Source: Candidatus Nomurabacteria bacterium (GTDB lineage: Bacteria; Patescibacteriota; Minisyncoccia; Phycocordibacterales; UBA918). Taken from it: a stretch of DNA of 64,000 nt. Numbering within the stretch: position 1 is the first letter of the stretch; each line of letters begins with the position of its first letter. Where the stretch lies: the NCBI GenBank assembly GCA_023898585.1, contig CP060229.1:11388-75387 (forward strand), written 5' to 3'. The position numbers were made by a program, and so were the translations under genes. A model generated the notes under the pieces. That model did not search any database and had not been told where the DNA came from. It worked only from the letters and a program-made list of their open reading frames with translations. This document shows, piece after piece, positions 5,795 through 62,262 of the stretch.

Positions 5795-7219
5795 TTAGAC
5801 GGTGAAATTGTTTATTGAGTAAAGACTACTTTCATCCTTTGTCTCTTCGTCTTTTTTAGTGATGTGTGATGGTGGTTGTTCAACAGAATCAGGAGCGACT
5901 CTTTCTTCGGTAGCTGGATTGATCGTGGTAGCTTGATTTTCAATCCTTTGATCATAATCATCACCGCCTAAACCACGAACGACACTTGGTGTTTCCTCCG
6001 GCCTGGTTGCGACTTCCTGTTTTGAATATTCAACAACACTTTTTTGATTTCCGGTCTCTTCAATTTGGTTGTGCTGATTTTGTTCAGCACTGACTGAATA
6101 ATGCCCGCCTATAGTTTGCGACACGATGGTTACGTTTGGTGACCGATATACCGATCCAGGTTCAATCCTGGACACCGCCTGCTTTCCGAACTCAGATGTT
6201 TGTCCTGTTTGATATTGAGTTTGTGACTGCGATGGTTCATCTGCAACTGGCTGTTTCGAAGATTCAGGAACTTCTTGAAGTTGATCTGGTTCTGGAGGTA
6301 AAATTTCACTTTCAGACTTATAATCAGTCTCCAGCGGAGTGTGTTCGGCTAAGTGTTCAGCCATTTCTTTTTGGCCGGTTTCTTTAGCAGACGCTTCGTC
6401 ACTCATTCTCTTCAAGATGGAAGCCAGGTCATCCTCTGAAAAATAGTCGATGGTAAGCTTGCCACCAAAATCGGTTTTTTGAATCTGAACTCTTGTTCCC
6501 AACGTCTCAGTAAATTGTCTCTCAAATTCTATCAAATTGGCATCAAATTCATCGGGGTCTTTCTTTCGCACTTTATCAGTGGCTATTTTTCGGACAATCC
6601 TTTCCACTTCACGAACCGATAATTTTTTAAGCAGGATTTCTTTGTAGACCACCTCCTGTTCTTCCAGACGATCGGAAAGCATGAGTAAAGTTCTCGCGTG
6701 TCCCTCAGTCATATCGCCAAGCTTCAAAGACTCCAACATATGCTCAGGCAAGCCAAGCAAACGAATTGTATTAGACACATATTCTCGACTGCGACCAACT
6801 TTTTTGGCAACTAAAGCGTGAGAAAGACCAAAAACATCCGCTAATTGCTTAAATGCGATCGCTCTATCAACAGCGTTCAAGTCCTCACGCTGGAGATTTT
6901 CTATGATGGCCAACTCCAACTTTTCTTGTTCATTCTGTTCACCTTCTCGAATAATAACCGGGACTTGCAGGACTCCAGCGAGCTTACTGGCTCGCAGACG
7001 TCGTTCCCCGGCGATCAATTCATATTCCGTATAAAATGTCCCGTTTTCCTGCTGAACTTCATTTCTAGTGACGGTGAGTGGCTGAAGCACGCCATACATA
7101 CGAATAGAATCCGCCAGTTCCTGCAGTTTATTTTGGTCGAATTCTCGACGCGGTTGAAAAGGATTGGGGACGATTTTCTCGACCTCTACCCAATAGATTG
7201 AATCTCCCTGAAATGCCAT
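5795..7219 (-). CDS. parB: ParB/Spo0J-family partition protein with long low-complexity C-terminal extension
   Basis: ParB box GERRLRASKLAG and HTH in N-terminal ~280 aa; C-terminal ~190 aa Q/E/S/T-rich. Confidence 0.85.
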   Translation of the reverse strand: MAFQGDSIYWVEVEKIVPNPFQPRREFDQNKLQELADSIRMYGVLQPLTVTRNEVQQENGTFYTEYELIAGERRLRASKLAGVLQVPVIIREGEQNEQEKLELAIIENLQREDLNAVDRAIAFKQLADVFGLSHALVAKKVGRSREYVSNTIRLLGLPEHMLESLKLGDMTEGHARTLLMLSDRLEEQEVVYKEILLKKLSVREVERIVRKIATDKVRKKDPDEFDANLIEFERQFTETLGTRVQIQKTDFGGKLTIDYFSEDDLASILKRMSDEASAKETGQKEMAEHLAEHTPLETDYKSESEILPPEPDQLQEVPESSKQPVADEPSQSQTQYQTGQTSEFGKQAVSRIEPGSVYRSPNVTIVSQTIGGHYSVSAEQNQHNQIEETGNQKSVVEYSKQEVATRPEETPSVVRGLGGDDYDQRIENQATTINPATEERVAPDSVEQPPSHITKKDEETKDESSLYSINNFTV

Positions 7220-12739: not shown

Positions 12740-13654
12740 TTAATATATGGAGAAATGACCGCCTGTTATATGGCCATATCCAGAATCAGAACTGCAATAA
12801 GCTTCCACGCCAGCAGCCCGAGCGGCGTCTCTTTCTGCACAATCTTGGGTTTCGTATACGGCTCTACGCCCAGAAGCAGAAGCTGCGGAATGAATGCTGG
12901 TTATGTTAGACAGCGAGCATTTTCCTGAGTTATCAGCCGGACGGCAGTCAATGTCGACGCAAGTTCCATTTCGATGGCAGGCATTGGTGTGCCCGATTTC
13001 AGTTCCTGCCGTAACAACCACTCCACACTCTGGACAAGCCAGGTGAATATCAACAATATCCTCTACAGTTTCAGTTTGCATTCCGGCCAATCCGGTACAT
13101 TGACGTTGTGACGGGTCGGTACACTCGCCACTAGCTAGTACAACAATACCTTCATCGTCAAATCTCCCTTTCACCCAACTCTCTGATCTACCTGTCCCTA
13201 CCCCCAAGGGAGGCTGACTTCCACTCAACTTAACCGGCCTTGGCGCCTGAGAAGCAGTCAACGAACTACACTCAATCTTCGACCAAAACAATTTTCCGTC
13301 AATCCTGCCGTCACCACCTATCAAAAGTCCTTTCATGACAGTATCAACCATAAGCCAGGCCGCCAAAACGATAATGATACCGATAATAGCGTTGGCTATC
13401 ATGTTTTTAGCGTCTTCTTTGGCTCCCGGATTACCGCCAGAAGTGACCAACTTAAAACCAGCTACCACAATGAGTACAGCAAAGACAACCATCAAAACTC
13501 CGATCAACCATTTTACGATTCCGTTCGCCATTTGTACGAAATGACACTCGGTACACATGGGTTCTCCGGCTCCGCCACAGGTTACGAAGTCGGCGAAGAC
13601 AAGAGTTGGGAGGAGGGTGAGGGTAAGTAGTATGTATAACTTTGCGTGTTTCAT
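12740..13654 (-). CDS. secreted pilin-like (TrbC/VirB2-like two-helix) module fused to Cys-rich C-terminal domain (possible cell-wall hydrolase)
   Basis: Signal peptide, then two hydrophobic helices with GGNPGAKEDAK loop identical to the paralog at 13684..14703; C-terminal 150 aa Cys/His-rich (GHTNACHRNGTCVDID, SGYGHITGGH). Confidence 0.6.
   Translation of the reverse strand: MKHAKLYILLTLTLLPTLVFADFVTCGGAGEPMCTECHFVQMANGIVKWLIGVLMVVFAVLIVVAGFKLVTSGGNPGAKEDAKNMIANAIIGIIIVLAAWLMVDTVMKGLLIGGDGRIDGKLFWSKIECSSLTASQAPRPVKLSGSQPPLGVGTGRSESWVKGRFDDEGIVVLASGECTDPSQRQCTGLAGMQTETVEDIVDIHLACPECGVVVTAGTEIGHTNACHRNGTCVDIDCRPADNSGKCSLSNITSIHSAASASGRRAVYETQDCAERDAARAAGVEAYCSSDSGYGHITGGHFSIY
13265..13626. 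repeat. 362-bp perfect direct repeat, copy 1 (covers the 5' coding part of the pilin-hydrolase gene)
   Basis: By-eye base-for-base identity with 14314..14675. Confidence 0.8.
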
Positions 13655-13683
13655 AAAGTTTAAGCAATTATCGACAGTGTGTC

Positions 13684-14703
13684 TTAACCCTTTAATTTTT
13701 CCGATACGTCACCCACCTTTTTTACATAAGATCTGGTTTCTATATAGCCGGTATTCGGAACACAATCGGTCTTGCCTGTATTATAACAGCCGTCAGAATT
13801 CCATTCACATTCCCACCGCATCAACCCAGGACAATTTTTACTAGGTTCGTTGGCACCTTTACCTCCGTTATATCCAGCATAAATTTTCCTTTCGTCGCCC
13901 TCATAAGCTTTATATAAATCAGCGTAAATCTTTGCCCCGAGACCGATGTTATAATTATCATCATCGCGCAATTTTTGACTTATTTCAGCATCACTCAAAT
14001 TTTTTAGAGCCGGATCATATCCCCTTGCTGTCCCGGGCATTATCTGCATACAGCCCTGTGCACCAACGGGACTTGTTTTACTTCGACAACCACCCGACTC
14101 CACTCTCATCAAAGCTTGCAAATTCCTGGTTTGTTCCGCGTCTAATCCAGCCAAAGCTGCCGCTTGAACAACTTTATCGTCTGGCGCTGTTAGAGATGCT
14201 ATCGATGCTATTTGAGCCGGAGTCAGAGTTCCTTTGGCAGGGTCATAAGCAGTTCCGCGTGAGGCGTCCGGTGTAGGGTGAACAATTTTGGGTGGAAATG
14301 TTTGCGCCATCACACTACACTCAATCTTCGACCAAAACAATTTTCCGTCAATCCTGCCGTCACCACCTATCAAAAGTCCTTTCATGACAGTATCAACCAT
14401 AAGCCAGGCCGCCAAAACGATAATGATACCGATAATAGCGTTGGCTATCATGTTTTTAGCGTCTTCTTTGGCTCCCGGATTACCGCCAGAAGTGACCAAC
14501 TTAAAACCAGCTACCACAATGAGTACAGCAAAGACAACCATCAAAACTCCGATCAACCATTTTACGATTCCGTTCGCCATTTGTACGAAATGACACTCGG
14601 TACACATGGGTTCTCCGGCTCCGCCACAGGTTACGAAGTCGGCGAAGACAAGAGTTGGGAGGAGGGTGAGGGTAAAAAGAGTTAGGAGAAGCGAATATTT
14701 CAT
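13684..14703 (-). CDS. secreted pilin-like (TrbC/VirB2-like) module fused to SLT-family lytic transglycosylase domain
   Basis: N-terminal 120 aa identical to paralog; C-terminal SLT motifs RVESGG, GCMQIMPGTA, AGYNGG. Start set at MKYSLLL (ATG 14703). Confidence 0.7.
   Translation of the reverse strand: MKYSLLLTLFTLTLLPTLVFADFVTCGGAGEPMCTECHFVQMANGIVKWLIGVLMVVFAVLIVVAGFKLVTSGGNPGAKEDAKNMIANAIIGIIIVLAAWLMVDTVMKGLLIGGDGRIDGKLFWSKIECSVMAQTFPPKIVHPTPDASRGTAYDPAKGTLTPAQIASIASLTAPDDKVVQAAALAGLDAEQTRNLQALMRVESGGCRSKTSPVGAQGCMQIMPGTARGYDPALKNLSDAEISQKLRDDDNYNIGLGAKIYADLYKAYEGDERKIYAGYNGGKGANEPSKNCPGLMRWECEWNSDGCYNTGKTDCVPNTGYIETRSYVKKVGDVSEKLKG
14314..14675. repeat. 362-bp perfect direct repeat, copy 2
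   Basis: Identical to 13265..13626; divergence begins immediately outside both ends. Confidence 0.8.
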
Positions 14704-14878
14704 ATAAATAACCAATGGGGTGACAACTTATAAAAATGTTTTACTAACAAACAAGCTGATTGTATTAAAATCACTAACATGAAAATGATAGCACAACAAA
14801 ACTTCCAAAATCGCTTGAGATGTGATATTTTGTTCGCACTCAAGAGTATTCCAATACTTTGAGTTTCAGATTTAATTT

Positions 14879-15401
14879 GCGTCGGTGGAGTAGTATAGGC
14901 AAACTGCTTTGCTTATACTCCGGTCACAAGCTATGCTTGTGAGGCGACGTTGTGAGCATTTGCAAATCAGGGTGAATCAGTTTGGGAAACTGATTCGCGG
15001 GGGCCCGACACCCGCGATTGCCACGCGTTAGCATGACGTTCAAAATTTTATTTGCGTCGGTGGCGGAGTGGATGAGAAATGAAATGTTTCATTTCTCATC
15101 CGTTCTGCGAGCGATAGCGAACAGATTGGTCAATGTGAACGAAAGTGAACAGACCAAAGGAGGACAATGTAATTGATCACGGAGAAACCGTGCAAAATAA
15201 ATTGTCTTTCTACGAAATACAATTTATTTTGCGTCGGTGGCGGAGTGGACAGAAAGTGAACAGTTTCACTTTCTGTCTGATCTGTCGCTTGCGACAGAAT
15301 TGCCGATGTTTATGAGGCAATAAGAGGACAATGAAATTGACCGCGTTTATGTCGCAGAGTTTCTGATGATATAAATGGAGTCAATTCACACAAAATTCAA
15401 C
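14879..15401 (+). repeat. three tandem ~175-bp units each starting with the tRNA-Tyr 5' end (TTGCGTCGGTGG(C)GGAGT) followed by a perfect hairpin; decayed tRNA-Tyr duplicates
   Basis: Units start at 14879, 15052 and 15232 with the same upstream AAATTTATTTTGCGTCGGTGGCGGAGTGGA context as the intact tRNA at 15404. Unit 2 retains the D-loop TGGTCAAT. Confidence 0.7.
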
Positions 15402-15403
15402 TT

Positions 15404-15489
15404 GCGTCGGTGGCGGAGTGGTCAATCGCATTAGACTGTAAATCTAACGGATTTATCCTACGCAGGTTCAAATCCTGCCCGGCGCACCA
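15404..15489 (+). tRNA. tRNA-Tyr (anticodon GTA), class II, CCA encoded
   Basis: Acceptor GCGTCGG/CCGGCGC, anticodon loop CTGTAAA, long variable arm GGATTTATCC, T-arm GCAGGTTCAAATCCTGC. Confidence 0.85.
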
Positions 15490-15631
15490 ATATTGAACTT
15501 GTCGGCTCAAAACCGACGGACGAGTGGGCGGCACGAAGTGCCGCCCACTGCGTTGGGGCATAAACAGAGCCGTTTTGCGGCGCGTCGCCTGCGGCGACAG
15601 CGACGACTTTTCCGCCGAGGCGGAGGTGCGA
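15484..15631. repeat. left 148-bp inverted repeat (GC-rich, internally hairpinned)
   Basis: Exact reverse complement of 18332..18479; contains hairpin AGTGGGCGGCAC-GAA-GTGCCGCCCACT. Confidence 0.8.
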
Positions 15632-15705
15632 CATCAGAAGCGATTTTGCTACATAGTATTTGCTTTGATACAAAAAGCATTTTTGTTTGTGGTACAATGA
15701 GAGGG

Positions 15706-15800
15706 CTATCAATTCAGGTGTTTTTTGTTGTTCGGACTCAAAGAGCCGTCTTGGACAGTTTAGGTTCGCCTGAATTGATAGCACCAAGACGGCTTTTTGA
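15706..15800. other. two interleaved 15-bp inverted repeats just upstream of the recombinase start codon (candidate recombination/att or regulatory site)
   Basis: CTATCAATTCAGGTG...CGCCTGAATTGATAG interleaved with AAAGAGCCGTCTTGG...CCAAGACGGCTTTTT. Confidence 0.3.
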
Positions 15801-15881
15801 GTGTTTGTTATCAGCTATTGTATTTCAATATGAATACACAAAAATACTTTTTGTATGCTCGCAATGGAAGGTACCCCAAAA

Positions 15882-16658
15882 TTAAGACACCTTTTGCAAG
15901 TCTTTTAATAATACCTCATGTTGGTCTCTAAACAACCGAGGTGGTACTTTTAAGACGGAGTGGATGCGTTTTTGATTGTAATAATTAATCGTCTGATAAA
16001 TAGTAGCCACTAACTCACCGAGAGTATCAAACCGGTTTGGGTCACCTAAGTCCAATTTGAACCCTTTATAGAAACTCTCTTGGTAACCATTCTCCCAGGG
16101 ACAACCGGGGGCACTCATGGACTGTTTGATACCAAGCTTTTGGGTTAAGGCAGTGTAGTCTTTTGAGCAGTACTCACTCCCTTGATCGGAATGAATAATC
16201 CGTGGAGGAGCTCGATGGAGCACTGCTGAAGCCAAAGCGTTAATGACGAGCTGTGTCTGATGTGTTGTCAATATCGATACACCAACTATCTCTCTAGTGT
16301 ACGTATCGAGTACTGTAGCCACATACAACCACTTTCCTCGATATTTAAGATAGGTGAAGTCTGAGGCATATATATCACCTGGCCCTCGTGGTTCCTCACT
16401 CATTAAATAGTTGGGAAACACACTACCTTTAGGCTTTCTATAGACTTTTTTGGCTGTTCTTCGATAAGGTTTGATGTCAAAGAGTTTCATCACCCGTAGC
16501 ACCTTCTTCTTGTTCATCTTGAGGTGTTGCGATAACCGTTTGTGTCCGTACCCTGGATGCTCACGAAGAGCCGTCTCAATCTGTTGCTTGGTGTGCCAAT
16601 CCTTTTGAGGTTGTTTATGGTGATAATAGTGATGCGTACGTGAATAACCGATCACCAT
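15882..16658 (-). CDS. IS3-family transposase OrfB (DDE integrase core)
   Basis: rve-like DDE domain: YASDFTYL, HSDQGSEY, ESFY..FK motifs. Confidence 0.8.
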   Translation of the reverse strand: MVIGYSRTHHYYHHKQPQKDWHTKQQIETALREHPGYGHKRLSQHLKMNKKKVLRVMKLFDIKPYRRTAKKVYRKPKGSVFPNYLMSEEPRGPGDIYASDFTYLKYRGKWLYVATVLDTYTREIVGVSILTTHQTQLVINALASAVLHRAPPRIIHSDQGSEYCSKDYTALTQKLGIKQSMSAPGCPWENGYQESFYKGFKLDLGDPNRFDTLGELVATIYQTINYYNQKRIHSVLKVPPRLFRDQHEVLLKDLQKVS

Positions 16659-16927
16659 CCCTTGGAGAGCCCCTTTTTAGCCTCAATGGACATTTTTATG
16701 GTGAGGTCACCGATGATTTGTTTGAGTTGTTCGTTTTCCTTCTTGAGTTTGTTGTGTTCAAGGAGACTGACCGTACCCGTGGCCTTTGTACCTAGCCAAT
16801 CATAAATGGTTCGACTACTGATGCCGTATTGGTTGGCAGTATCACTAACACTCAAGCCTTCGTGTTTGATTTTATTGATAACTTCTTCTTTGATCTCAGC
16901 TGATATCTTGTATCCTTTCTTGGACAT
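16652..16927 (-). CDS. IS3-family transposase OrfA (HTH)
   Basis: 91-aa HTH protein with leucine-zipper-like C-terminus; overlaps orfB. Confidence 0.8.
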   Translation of the reverse strand: MSKKGYKISAEIKEEVINKIKHEGLSVSDTANQYGISSRTIYDWLGTKATGTVSLLEHNKLKKENEQLKQIIGDLTIKMSIEAKKGLSKGW

Positions 16928-18331
16928 ATTGCTTGTATTGTTTAAGTGATAATACTTGCAAAAGTTGTCTTAAGAAAGGGGTACCTTTCAGATAAGCAAG
17001 TGCTTTCGATAGATGCACAGCTCACCGAGTTGCGGGCGTTTGCTCGGGAGCAAGGTTTGCAGATCGTAGAGGAATTTGTTGAGAAGCAATCTGCCAAGTC
17101 TCTTGGGCGCCCTATCTTTGGTGAGATGCTTGAACGGATAGAGAGTGGTGAAGCACAAGGTATCGTGTCATGGGCGCCCGATCGCCTCGCCCGCAATTCC
17201 GTCGATGGAGGTAGGGTGATCTATCTCCTCGACACTGGCAAACTTGCGAGCCTCAAATTTCCAACCTTCTGGTGTGACAATACCAGTCAAGGAAAATTTA
17301 TGCTCTCTATGGCATTTGGACAAAGCAAATACTATGTTGATTCTCTTTCCGAAAATACGAAACGCGGACTGCGCCAAAAAGTCCGTATGGGGCATTGTCC
17401 GAGTTTAGCTCCTGTGGGGTATATCAACGATGTTCGAACAAAGACTATTACTGTGGACAAAAAGCGTTCCAAGATAATCAAGCAAGTATTTCAAGAGTAT
17501 GTTAAAGGCAACATGCGACTGGAAGATGTGGCGGACTTTTTGGCACACTCCGGCGTTACCACCAGAACCGGAAAAAGAATCTCCAAGACCAAGGCGTCTT
17601 TTATCCTCTCCAACCCCTTCTACATCGGTTTGTTCAAGTACGGTGGTGAACTCCACGAAGGCAAGCACGAGCCAATCATTGCAAAGAAACTGTTTGATGA
17701 AGCGCAGGCAGTTTTGAAACGCCGTGGACAACCAGACCGCAAACCCAAGAATGAACCGCAGCCATACTGCGGACTCATTTCCTGCGCTTCCTGCGGGATG
17801 ATGATCACTGCCGAGAACAAAACGAAGCGACAGAAGAATGGAAACGTGCATCACTATGTGTATTATCGGTGTACGAAAAAATCTAAGACACAAAGGTGTA
17901 CTGAAATGTCGCTTCGCTCTGAAGAAATGGATCGGCAGGTATCATCACTTATCAAATCGGTTTCTTTGCCCACAGACTGGGCGGAGGAATTGAATCGCGT
18001 GGCGATAGTCGAACACAAAACCTCCGCCCACTCTGCGACGCGTCTCGTGAAAGAGAAGGAGGAGAACATACAAACCATTGCGATCAAACTAGAGCGACTT
18101 TTGAATGGTTACCTCGATCAAGTGATTGATGAGCAAGATTATCGCACGCAAAAAGCAAAACTGCTCTCCGAAAAGAAGTCACTCGAAGGTGAAATTACTT
18201 CTCTTTCACACCACGCGAATGATTGGCTCGCACCTTTCGAGGATTGGCTAAAAGACGCTATGGACTTGGACAAAATCGCTTCTGATAGTAACCTTTTTGC
18301 CAAAAAGGTTACCGCCAAAGAAATCTTTGGC

Positions 18332-18479
18332 TCGCACCTCCGCCTCGGCGGAAAAGTCGTCGCTGTCGCCGCAGGCGACGCGCCGCAAAACGGCTCTGTT
18401 TATGCCCCAACGCAGTGGGCGGCACTTCGTGCCGCCCACTCGTCCGTCGGTTTTGAGCCGACAAGTTCAATATTGGTGC
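18332..18479. repeat. right 148-bp inverted repeat
   Basis: Reverse complement of 15484..15631; last 6 bp are the tRNA-Leu ...TGGTGC (CCA end). Confidence 0.8.
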
Positions 18480-18563
18480 CCGGGGCGGGAATTGAACCCG
18501 CACGCCACTTTGAATAGCAAGGGATTTTAAGTCCCTCGTGTCTACCGATTTCACCACCCGGGC
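18474..18563 (-). tRNA. tRNA-Leu (anticodon TAA), class II, CCA encoded
   Basis: Minus strand: GCCCGGGTGGTGAAATCGGTAGACACGAGGGACTTAAAATCCC...GGGTTCAATTCCCGCCCCGGGCACCA. Confidence 0.85.
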
Positions 18564-61589: not shown

Positions 61590-61732
61590 GGTGTCAATTC
61601 AAATCATGTAATTTGTATGCTATCATCTTACCACTTTATTCGACTTAAATGTTTAGTAACCGCTTGGGTACGGCTGGTCGAATAAAAGTCGCACGAGTGA
61701 TTAGCTCATTAGAAGAATAAATTTATTGTGAG

Positions 61733-61756
61733 CGATTAGCTCAGCTGGTAGCGGTT
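61733..61756 (+). repeat. exact copy of the first 24 nt of tRNA-Val (one of several tRNA-Val fragments in 61733..62178)
   Basis: GTGAGCGATTAGCTCAGCTGGTAG identical to 61933..61956. Further fragments at 61895..61912 (5'), 61866..61880 and 62068..62085 (anticodon arm), 62153..62177 (3' end). Confidence 0.7.
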
Positions 61757-61934
61757 CGAAAGTCTTCTTGCAGAAGCAGTACACCTTTTGAATGATGTGT
61801 TCACAGACTCCGAAACATTTCAAAAGGTCTTGCGAAGTGACATTTGTCACCCACACTTTCTCACCCTTTCCATTGTAGAGGTCAATCGAATAAATTATAT
61901 GTGAGCGATTAGCTCACCGAAATGAGTTTAATGT

Positions 61935-62007
61935 GAGCGATTAGCTCAGCTGGTAGAGCGCTACATTGACATTGTAGAGGTCACAAGTTCAAGTCTTGTA
62001 TCGCTCA
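61935..62007 (+). tRNA. tRNA-Val (anticodon GAC)
   Basis: Acceptor GAGCGAT/ATCGCTC, D-arm GCTCAGCTGGTAGAGC, anticodon stem CTACA/TGTAG with loop TTGACAT, T-arm CAAGTTCAAGTCTTG. Confidence 0.85.
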
Positions 62008-62262
62008 CATTGAACTCATTCAAAAAATTGCTTGGTAGCGGTAAAAAGTCATCCCATGATTTTTTACCATTTCCATTATAGAGATCACAAGGCGCCCTAG
62101 AATCCAAGGAGACGACAGTCGACTATGGGTTCGGAAGTGCTCTTGGGGCGCAAGTCTTGTATCGCTCACACAATTTTTATCCTCGTATAATAAACAAGTT
62201 CAATTCTTGTTCGCTCATTTTAATTTACACTACCACCTGAGTTTGTGTTCAAAGTATTTATT

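Follow-up and report, generated by a model that had tools for sequence, protein, structure and literature searches.

Structured tandem units on the 5' side of a tRNA-Tyr gene in a Candidatus Nomurabacteria genome: possible leader or small-RNA modules

Repeats linked to a tRNA-Tyr gene are known from the tyrT/tyrV locus of Escherichia coli (PMC3318445). In E. coli K-12, three repeats with 95% identity follow each other at a spacing of 178/178 nucleotides (nt), the first of them overlaps the last 19 nt of tyrV, and a small RNA, RttR (gene rttR), as well as the small tpr open reading frame (ORF) are annotated inside the repeats. At integration sites in tRNA genes, the displaced tRNA fragment is usually the 3' part. 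A regenerated tRNA gene and its displaced fragment mark the ends of a genomic island (PMC4383910). Here we describe an array of three units directly upstream of a tRNA-Tyr gene in a 64,000-nt stretch of the genome of a Candidatus Nomurabacteria bacterium (contig CP060229.1, positions 11,388 to 75,387; hereafter the window). We report the repeat, its structure and covariation, its homologues in other Patescibacteria and the strand asymmetry of its folding, and we discuss whether the units could be RNA modules, mobile cassettes, neutral scars or DNA palindromes.

The array is defined by the sequence TTGCGTCGGTGG, which has four exact matches on the plus strand (at 14877, 15052, 15229 and 15402; spacing 175/177/173 nt). 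With one mismatch allowed five matches were obtained, a number reached in none of 100 dinucleotide-preserving shuffles. Within positions 14500-15900, GCGTCGGTGG is likewise read four times on the plus strand, and the repeat search delimited a family of 31-nt blocks at 14866-14896, 15041-15071, 15218-15248 and 15391-15421 with 74-100% identity. Past this block, units 2 and 3 (U2 and U3) align over 64 nt at 75% and over 31 nt at 77%. Tandem Repeats Finder did not report the array, because the unit bodies are too diverged. An earlier note made from the sequence alone had described four units with a period of about 175 bp which share a promoter-proximal context and the tRNA-Tyr 5' end. Our analysis confirms this arrangement, and the shuffles never matched it. 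The length of the shared tRNA 5' end has to be corrected, however: it is 18 nt in U2 and U3, while unit 1 (U1) shares only GCGTCGGTGG (+AGT), i.e. 10 nt.

In agreement with the same note, only the fourth copy is an intact tRNA. ARAGORN calls tRNA-Tyr(gta) at 15404-15489 as the sole tRNA among the four copies, and Rfam detects the same gene with 62.9 bits. Neither program calls anything tRNA-like in units 1-3, and complete tRNAs hidden inside the units were not found with either of them. The units keep tRNA nt 1-10 or 1-18, have no T arm and therefore do not qualify as tRNA genes or pseudogenes; in U2 and U3, no remnant of the T arm or of the 3' acceptor strand was found. These two units contain a diverged stretch which resembles tRNA nt ~20-33 (CAATGNAATTGA vs CAATCGCATTAGA). 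Together with the copies of the tRNA 5' end, this makes partial duplication of the 5' half of the tRNA gene their likely ultimate origin. A known RNA family was also considered and rejected: Rfam gave the tRNA only, both in the whole window (gathering thresholds) and at 14400-16000 on both strands (E<=10), the rest being sub-threshold chance matches to miRNA or otherwise unrelated models, and no family, related to tRNA or not, reached the threshold in units 1-3.

The features of the array are given below. HP1 to HP3 are hairpins 1 to 3, the core is the copy of tRNA nt 1-18, the anti-core is the segment after HP1 with which the core is predicted to pair, R1 is a covariance model of the units, and MFE is the minimum free energy.

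14821-14829, plus strand: TGTGATATT, extended -10-like sequence, candidate promoter P0 upstream of the array, putative in function and strand; a hairpin follows at 14839-14863
14866-14896, plus strand: repeat block 1 (repeat search) with the weak -10-like hexamer TCAGAT, 7 nt, then GCGTCGGTGG-AGTAGTAT (copy of tRNA nt 1-10)
14879-15053, plus strand: unit 1, 175 nt, junction after tRNA nt 10; MFE -67 kcal/mol, R1 62.7 bits
14887-14921, plus strand: HP1 of unit 1, loop CUGC (fold)
14924-14942, plus strand: HP2 of unit 1, 8 perfect pairs (fold)
14951-14969, plus strand: unit 1 motif UGUGAGC...GCAAAUCA
14974-14996 and 14996-15016 (CGCGGG/CCCGCG), plus strand: further hairpins of unit 1
15018-15046, plus strand: sigma-70-like candidate promoter before unit 2 (TTGCCA, 17 nt, CAAAAT), its -10 ending 7 nt before G15054; a consensus match only
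15054-15230, plus strand: unit 2, 177 nt; MFE -70.7 kcal/mol, R1 107.9 bits
15054-15071, 15070-15101 and 15102-15122, plus strand: core (= tRNA nt 1-18), HP1 and anti-core/HP2-like segment of unit 2
15126-15157, plus strand: HP3 of unit 2 with outer stem UUGGUC/GACCAA, inner stem with tandem G·A, and GAAA loop
15159-15169 and 15159-15210, plus strand: GGAGGACAATG and 3' domain of unit 2
15192-15232, no strand assigned: 19-bp near-perfect palindrome (95% complementary) across the unit 2/unit 3 junction, containing the TACAAT -10-like hexamer of unit 3 (15218-15223)
15231-15403, plus strand: unit 3, 173 nt; MFE -68.6 kcal/mol, R1 98.1 bits
15231-15248 and 15247-15278, plus strand: core and HP1 of unit 3
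15281-15293, plus strand: anti-core of unit 3, overlapping HP2 at 15282-15297 (CUGUCG-CUUG-CGACAG)
15299-15321, 15323-15333 and 15335-15386, plus strand: HP3, AGAGGACAATG and 3' domain of unit 3
15391-15403, plus strand: upstream part of repeat block 4 (repeat search) with the CAAAAT -10-like hexamer and 7 nt, abutting the tRNA
15404-15489, plus strand: tRNA-Tyr(GTA), intact, CCA encoded (ARAGORN, Rfam)

The units are strongly structured on the strand of the tRNA. The plus-strand MFE of U1, U2 and U3 is -67.0, -70.7 and -68.6 kcal/mol, respectively, corresponding to z-scores of -4.35, -8.93 and -6.73, and no shuffle folds as well. In all three units the plus strand folds better than the minus strand by 10-17 kcal/mol (minus-strand values are -53.5 kcal/mol, z -6.12, for U2 and -51.3 kcal/mol, z -5.80, for U3). 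In terms of z, U2 and U3 are more negative on the plus strand, and U1 is about equal on both. HP1 lies directly after the tRNA-like start in every unit. The earlier note had seen a perfect hairpin in each of them, which holds for U2 (14-15 perfect pairs) and nearly so for U3 (13 perfect pairs and one G·U) but not for U1, where 15 pairs include a 3-nt bulge. Similarly, the sequence TGGTCAAT, regarded there as a D-loop remnant of unit 2, is indeed present (15126-15133), but it forms the 5' arm of the conserved HP3.

Homologous units exist in other genomes. The 18-nt sequence GCGTCGGTGGCGGAGTGG is the conserved 5' end of tRNA-Tyr across Patescibacteria, and a genome scan with the 18-nt core yielded at least 120 loci, the sample from which the frequencies of tRNA-Tyr loci given here are taken. 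A second, upstream GCGTCGGTGG is present at about 12 of about 71 sampled Patescibacteria tRNA-Tyr loci and belongs to several sequence types. Homologues of the units were found directly 5' of tRNA-Tyr, one each, in L128/L129 (159 nt), L026 (139 nt) and L083 (121 nt). L128 is the closest syntenic relative of the window, with an SLT protein that is 62% identical (53-62% among the syntenic relatives). Of the aligned columns, 115/145 are identical between U2 and the L128 unit, 112/145 between U2 and U3, and 92/118 between U1 and the L026 unit, to which U1 is closest. Conservation of the L026 unit thus greatly exceeds that of its surroundings, since the pilin beside it shares only 27-30% identity with the pilin in the window. 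The L083 unit is flanked by tRNA-Trp and tRNA-Tyr and has no neighbouring SLT gene; its HP1 is almost identical to that of the L128 unit. The L128 and L026 units are also structured, with z-scores of -4.48 and -5.71.

Comparison of these sequences revealed two subtypes, in which the junction follows tRNA nt 18 (U2, U3, L128) or tRNA nt 10 (U1, L026, L083). Units of the first subtype have HP3 followed by GGAGGACAAU in common. Those of the second have an HP1 with the loop CUGC and, further on, a related G+C-rich hairpin (GGCCGACACC in L083, GCCCGACACCC in U1), and the linker CCGGUC is common to U1 and the L026 unit. The core follows the local tRNA: in L128, unit and tRNA alike have GGTGGTGG, whereas the tRNA and units 2 and 3 of the window have GGTGGCGG; U1 does not extend to these positions. 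In addition, the L128 unit contains 19 nt (CAATCACAACAGACTGTAA) which are identical to nt ~21-39 of its own tRNA. According to our search with model R1 over 84 sources, matches were confined to the training units and a weak one upstream of a tRNA-Leu gene in L113; further copies were found neither elsewhere in the window nor in ~630 kb of Patescibacteria loci. When metagenomes were scanned for cores that continue with a base differing from the tRNA, three chance matches in G+C-rich DNA were obtained, and scans of viral contigs with the HP3 motif or with core plus HP1 gave chance matches only and no match to the covariance model. A small ORF from AGGAGG-ATG in U2 and U3 was rejected as unconserved (ATG-TAA in U2, 11 codons in U3, no ATG in L128).

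Covariation was analyzed in A3, a six-unit MAFFT alignment on which HP1, HP2 and HP3 were imposed as structure and which was compared with 500 shuffles. Standard pairs make up 90.2% of the cells, compared to 76.1±1.9% in the shuffled alignments and 36-44% when the partners were slid. Changes on both sides were found in 15/32 pairs (6.3±1.7 in shuffles), and on no measure did any of the 500 shuffles reach the value of the real alignment. In HP1, 97.5% of the cells are paired and 7/14 pairs are doubly changed; in HP3, these values are 100% and 5/11. For example, HP1 of U2 (arms GGAUGAGAAAUGAA/UUCAUUUCUCAUCC) and HP1 of U3 (GGACAGAAAGUGAA/UUCACUUUCUGUCU) differ in both arms at five pair positions without a single broken pair. 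MAFFT aligns two sequences poorly in HP2. Read directly, HP2 is a perfect hairpin of 6-8 bp in U1, U3 and the L128 and L026 units, with two compensatory pair changes between U3 (CUGUCG-CUUG-CGACAG) and L128 (CUUCCG-CUUG-CGGAAG). The compensatory changes on one strand are those expected of a structured RNA in general, as seen in six distinct sequences from which the structure itself was derived. The designation of units 1-3 as decayed copies, which had been central to the earlier note, is not supported, in view of these data (15/32 pairs doubly changed, 90% paired, 0/500 shuffles) and of the homologues beside neighbour proteins of only 27-62% identity. What remains of iterated duplication and decay is the duplication, documented by the repeated copies of the promoter-proximal region and 5' end and by the stretch resembling nt ~20-33; strong folding, compensatory changes and homologues across genomes speak against the decay.

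Besides the hairpins, a longer helix is predicted. In the folds of U2 and U3 the core pairs with the segment after HP1, and RNAalifold, applied to U2, U3 and the L128 unit, predicts one long 5' helix composed of core:anti-core and HP1. The predicted G·U/U·G positions of core:anti-core are kept in at least two of these three units. On the opposite strand they would be A·C mismatches, and thus the structure is specific to the tRNA strand. The core helix and HP2, each of which has comparative support, exclude one another, since the 5' arm of HP2 and the anti-core overlap. The HP3 stem UGUGAGC/GCGAACA contains tandem G·A pairs, and its flanking pair changes from G-C to A-U between the L128 unit and U2. 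The loops include CUUG in HP2 of U3 and of the L128 unit, and GAAA is also seen. G·U pairs, CUUG and GAAA loops and tandem G·A are RNA-type and strand-specific features, which correction of DNA palindromes would not yield. The tandem G·A pairs were also inspected as a possible C/D-box or K-turn; they are helix-internal with no adjoining 3-nt bulge, and this assignment was rejected.

The copied segment includes promoter-like sequences. In blocks 1-4, the -10-like hexamers TCAGAT, CAAAAT, TACAAT and CAAAAT are separated from the G of GCGTCGG by exactly 7 nt. The sequence GTGTGATATTTT(G/A) is kept at the same place in all syntenic relatives (L124, L128, L130, L135, L138, L142, L143), and TGTGATATT at 14821-14829 may be a further promoter upstream of the array. 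Among 72 distinct upstream regions of Patescibacteria tRNA-Tyr genes (loci L004-L145), the best -10 match ends 8-10 nt before position +1 in 31, which implies, as far as such matches indicate promoters, that transcripts of tRNA-Tyr in these bacteria often begin with hardly any 5' leader. Promoter and first tRNA bases then form one compact block, and both would therefore be duplicated together. In L026 and L083 no -10-like hexamer was seen between the unit and the tRNA, and the unit there thus reads as a co-transcribed leader. No intrinsic terminators were predicted.

Our preferred reading, which we put forward tentatively, is that units 1-3 are structured leader or small-RNA modules that are driven by the duplicated promoter and initial transcribed sequence of tRNA-Tyr and change in number by recombination. 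The data support a conserved, structured plus-strand RNA module on the 5' side of tRNA-Tyr, which arose on a duplicated promoter and tRNA 5' end and of which the window contains three old copies of two subtypes. Its transcription and processing, as well as any role in regulation or in trans, are what we infer from them. The units would probably be transcribed on the tRNA strand, either from their own promoter copies or by read-through from the element at 14821. In the RNA, the core would pair with the anti-core following the 14-bp HP1 to give a predicted irregular helix of ~30 bp. Alternatively, the anti-core would serve as the 5' arm of HP2 with its CUUG loop, resulting in two mutually exclusive folds. 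HP3 with its conserved UGUGAGC/GCGAACA stem and tandem G·A would be the third hairpin. The modules would be set free as stable RNAs when RNase P cleaves at the tRNA 5' end, possibly together with cuts in the long helices. A sequestered core would not mispair with the 3' acceptor strand of the tRNA, and in this way the extra acceptor/D strand would be kept from disturbing tRNA folding. Recombination or gene conversion between the 31-nt blocks would let the array grow and homogenise, thus leading to 0, 1 or 3 copies among relatives and to cores identical to the resident tRNA.

A more far-reaching proposal, which we regard as rather doubtful, is that of a class of bistable tRNA 5' leaders, in which the core as decoy, the anti-core and the real tRNA 5' end build a three-part switch that gates folding or maturation of tRNA-Tyr or releases a protein-binding small RNA, or else of a hairpin-guided, promoter-bearing mini-cassette that inserts at tRNA 5' ends. 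The units are possibly a new structured RNA motif. If they are real RNAs, they would represent an undescribed structured RNA family, with no Rfam match, from the little-studied Patescibacteria, and tRNA-Tyr genes would seem to spawn linked, repeated RNA modules repeatedly. If they are mini-cassettes, they would stand for a new way in which tiny elements insert at tRNA 5' ends. The competition between core, anti-core and HP2 provides a concrete, testable hypothesis for the control of tRNA maturation. The practical impact is modest, since the family is rare (four lineages seen) and dispensable in close relatives.

Several observations weigh against the RNA-module reading. The promoters are consensus matches only, and the scan gave no more promoter-like sites than shuffles did. 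No units were found in six of the seven other syntenic relative lineages (L124/127, L130-133, L135/136, L138-140, L142, L143-145), and thus the module is dispensable; a mobile or selfish element would account equally well for its patchy distribution. Upstream of a different tRNA, the tRNA-Leu of L113, there is a module in the same style. The family is small, with seven copies in four lineages, was found via the shared tRNA 5' end, and its structure was tested on the same sequences that were used to derive it. When the whole array is folded as one transcript, the MFE structure mixes the domains, and 39/218 pairs cross unit boundaries. Finally, template-switch mutation can keep DNA palindromes perfect without selection, although the G·U-rich helix and the G·A motif are not accounted for in this way.

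Among the alternatives, we consider miniature integrative cassettes the best, even if unlikely. Such non-autonomous elements would recombine at the tRNA-Tyr core and restore the gene by means of the promoter and 5'-end copy at their far end, and repeated insertion would produce the array. The long hairpin of the core and its imperfect complement would be a folded single-strand recombination site. Sites comparable in principle are known from integrons (attC) and from CTX phage (the attP hairpin). In line with this model, each unit is flanked by direct repeats of the core, related genomes have 0, 1 or 3 copies at the same locus, and one array harbours two subtypes, with U2 as close to the L128 unit as to U3. 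In L113, a similar two-hairpin module follows a 30-nt copy of the tRNA-Leu(tag) 5' end, and its junction resembles the Tyr core. Moreover, tRNA fragments arise widely through integrating elements that duplicate part of a tRNA (PMC9897764, PMC4383910). However, among the nine ORFs tested in the interval 9.0-22.2 kb no tyrosine or integron-type integrase was detected, and no recombinase lies near the unit of L128. The units have no coding capacity, and no further copies were found in the window or in the ~630 kb of other loci. Selection at the RNA level and not at the DNA level is suggested by the G·U-dependent pairing, by the loops CUUG and GAAA and by the G·A motif. In addition, fragment and gene bracket only ~145 nt of non-coding DNA, unlike the ends of genomic islands. 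The earlier note had also considered repeated capture of a tRNA 5' end by integrating elements. The displaced identical fragment that this leaves is indeed present (the 18-nt core in U2 and U3, 10 nt in U1), but neither integrase nor cargo is located between the copies, and the ORFs of rve and of the serine recombinase are found past the tRNA, on its 3' side. Specific recombination and splicing sites were rejected as well. For an att site of a serine recombinase at the 5' junctions, the sequence after the junction was found not to be an inverted core, and the recombinase-related repeat is on the 3' side. A group I intron with an alternative 5' exon was rejected by reasoning, because the repeat makes both junction nucleotides one base, while U (5') and G (3') are needed at the splice sites.

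Somewhat less probable still are neutral scars, i.e. iterated partial duplications of the tRNA 5' end or att-type leftovers that drift and in which palindromes are kept only by template-switch mutation. The tRNA-Tyr locus is a recombination hot spot, as judged from a recombinase-gene remnant, an insertion sequence (IS) element and identical 142-nt blocks, and the diverged stretch resembling nt 20-33 in U2 and U3 and the dispensability of the units in relatives are consistent with scars. So is tRNA-Val(gac) in the same genome, which has three upstream 5' fragments, scattered internal fragments and a 173-nt unit without significant structure (z -1.55). The units at tRNA-Tyr, on the other hand, have z-scores of -4.4 to -8.9. 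Furthermore, U2, U3 and the L128 unit differ at ~21-27% of aligned positions, yet HP1 and HP3 are essentially unbroken with many double changes, and palindrome correction does not make conserved G·U pairs or tandem G·A. The 78% identity to the L026 unit is also far above what a 27%-identical neighbour protein would lead one to expect. DNA-level regulatory palindromes, i.e. operators or cruciforms controlling tRNA-Tyr or the divergent SLT/pilin operon, are very improbable, since, although the palindromes abut or overlap promoter-like elements (e.g. 15192-15232 over the -10 hexamer of unit 3) and divergent genes flank the array, the plus strand clearly gives the better structure, only pairing and not stem sequence is conserved, and the L083 unit between tRNA-Trp and tRNA-Tyr has no SLT gene next to it. 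A T-box leader was rejected too: no Rfam T-box match was obtained at E<=10, and UGGC in the window core does not match discriminator A.

The neighbouring ORFs of the array encode an SLT/T4SS-pilin protein, a second pilin and MiaA. The array is located between divergent genes, tRNA-Tyr being divergent from the SLT gene here as in the syntenic relatives. The SLT product is annotated in NCBI with 298 amino acids. The distance from the tRNA 5' end to the SLT start is 688 nt in the window and ~80-175 nt in the syntenic relatives without units; thus, the array is extra sequence in the lineage of the window. In the region 12740-14715 (minus strand), two adjacent proteins with T4SS-pilin domains have an identical N-terminal region, and the same residues of both aligned to the L026 pilin, a finding that points to recent tandem duplication or gene conversion.

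One further feature is located on the 3' side of the tRNA:

15490-15631, no strand assigned: 142-nt G+C-rich hairpin block right after CCA, outside the 5' array; an inverted identical copy follows tRNA-Leu(taa) at 18332-18473

This block corresponds to the 3' end of a large serine-recombinase reading frame (16946-18517). It belongs to a 167-nt inverted repeat (15465-15631 vs 18332-18498) with 97.6% identity overall and 100% from CACCA on, which covers the 3' ends of tRNA-Tyr and tRNA-Leu(taa) plus the 142 nt of hairpins, and which brackets an IS element and the serine recombinase gene; the recombinase frame extends across the block and into the tRNA. Either a second copy of the recombinase element used to adjoin tRNA-Tyr or the two tRNA-linked ends recombined, as is suggested by a remnant ORF at 15458-15787 (minus strand) with 84% identity to residues 452-519 of the serine recombinase. 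Terminal inverted repeats of 40 nt with 83% complementarity (15865-15904 and 16951-16990) delimit the IS3-family-like element (15865-16990), which contains an rve-domain ORF (15882-16658, minus strand) and an upstream ORF of 91 amino acids (16652-16927, minus strand) and is inserted directly upstream of the serine recombinase gene. A recombinase gene abuts the tRNA 3' end at tRNA-Leu in the window and, in L131 and L077, at tRNA-Tyr. The adjacent recombinase element mentioned in the earlier note is thus present, but it explains the 3' side of the tRNA, which is ordinary tRNA-3'-end integration biology and does not account for the 5' array. The sequence CAAAATCGCTT(G/C)...GAT occurs at 14806-14823, just upstream of the array. 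It is seen again, in inverted and in direct orientation, at 15631-15648 and 18271-18286, where the two recombinase-linked blocks have their inner ends (18 nt, 89% complementary). Its recurrence may be due to chance or may be a relic of a recombination site.

Partial tRNA copies were also noticed at other loci. In the window, tRNA-Val(gac) at 61935-62008 is preceded by copies of its own 5' end at 61695 (14 nt, one mismatch), 61730 (22 nt, identical) and 61903 (14 nt), and copies of an internal piece (CATTGTAGAGGTCA-like) are present at 61869-61887 and 62073-62092; its 173-nt unit, 61730-61902, is not significantly structured. In L113, a Patescibacteria metagenome-assembled genome labelled Saccharibacteria, the tRNA-Leu(tag) region 6078-6190 (minus strand) contains a 30-nt copy of the gene's own 5' end followed by perfect hairpins of 13 bp and 7 bp. 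Upstream of tRNA-Tyr on the same contig (1565-1853, minus strand) there are a copy of the first 37 nt of this gene, which breaks off in the anticodon loop, and ~165 nt of hairpin-rich sequence beside a scaffold gap of 100 N. Other, apparently unrelated types of short units also start with the tRNA-Tyr 5' end upstream of the gene (L052, L086, L064; L011, L050; L081). One type measures 70-75 nt (GCGTCGGTGGCGGCGGTCA...) and occurs in two tandem copies in L052, another contains GGTGG-CGGA-CCACC (L011, L050), and the unit of L081 is 58 nt long. In L138-L140, a partial copy of the tRNA-Tyr 3' end (GAATCTTCTCCGGTAG) lies ~130 nt downstream of the intact gene and represents the usual displaced 3' fragment.

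Returning to the units themselves, they can be compared with four kinds of described systems. Like integron arrays with attC sites, they are tandem units with a short conserved junction and an adjacent hairpin that is conserved in structure and not in sequence. In contrast to integrons, the junction repeat has 18-31 nt and equals a tRNA 5' end, the stems are near-perfect, the units are non-coding, and the pairing depends on G·U as in RNA; moreover, the nine ORFs mentioned above contain no IntI-type or Phage_integrase-type domain, and the array does not qualify as an integron. With the tRNA fragments of integrative elements (PMC4383910, PMC9897764), the array shares a partial tRNA copy beside an intact, regenerated gene. 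It differs in having ~145 nt of structured non-coding DNA with neither integrase nor cargo, in the copying of the 5' end together with the promoter, and in an intervening sequence that is itself conserved between genomes. A functional RNA can also arise from a tRNA precursor, as in the case of the E. coli 3'ETS-leuZ sponge, a small RNA derived from a precursor spacer. If the units are processed, they would resemble this type as by-products of tRNA-precursor processing, but they are much larger and repeated.

The nearest analogue is tyrT-tyrV/rtT (rttR) of E. coli, where tandem non-tRNA units of ~175-180 bp are likewise attached to a tRNA-Tyr gene and each carries a short terminal tRNA segment. 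The two loci have no sequence or Rfam similarity; the Rfam RtT model did not match at E<=10 within 14400-16000 on either strand. The E. coli copies are 95% identical, while the units in the window share ~72-77% over aligned columns and show compensatory changes in their stems. The E. coli repeats lie on the 3' side and carry the tRNA 3' end, whereas the units described here lie on the 5' side and carry the promoter and the tRNA 5' end. By analogy, the array is best seen as the 5'-side mirror image of the E. coli locus and, if the units are real RNAs, would be the first 5'-side counterpart of the long-unexplained tyrT/rtT repeats.

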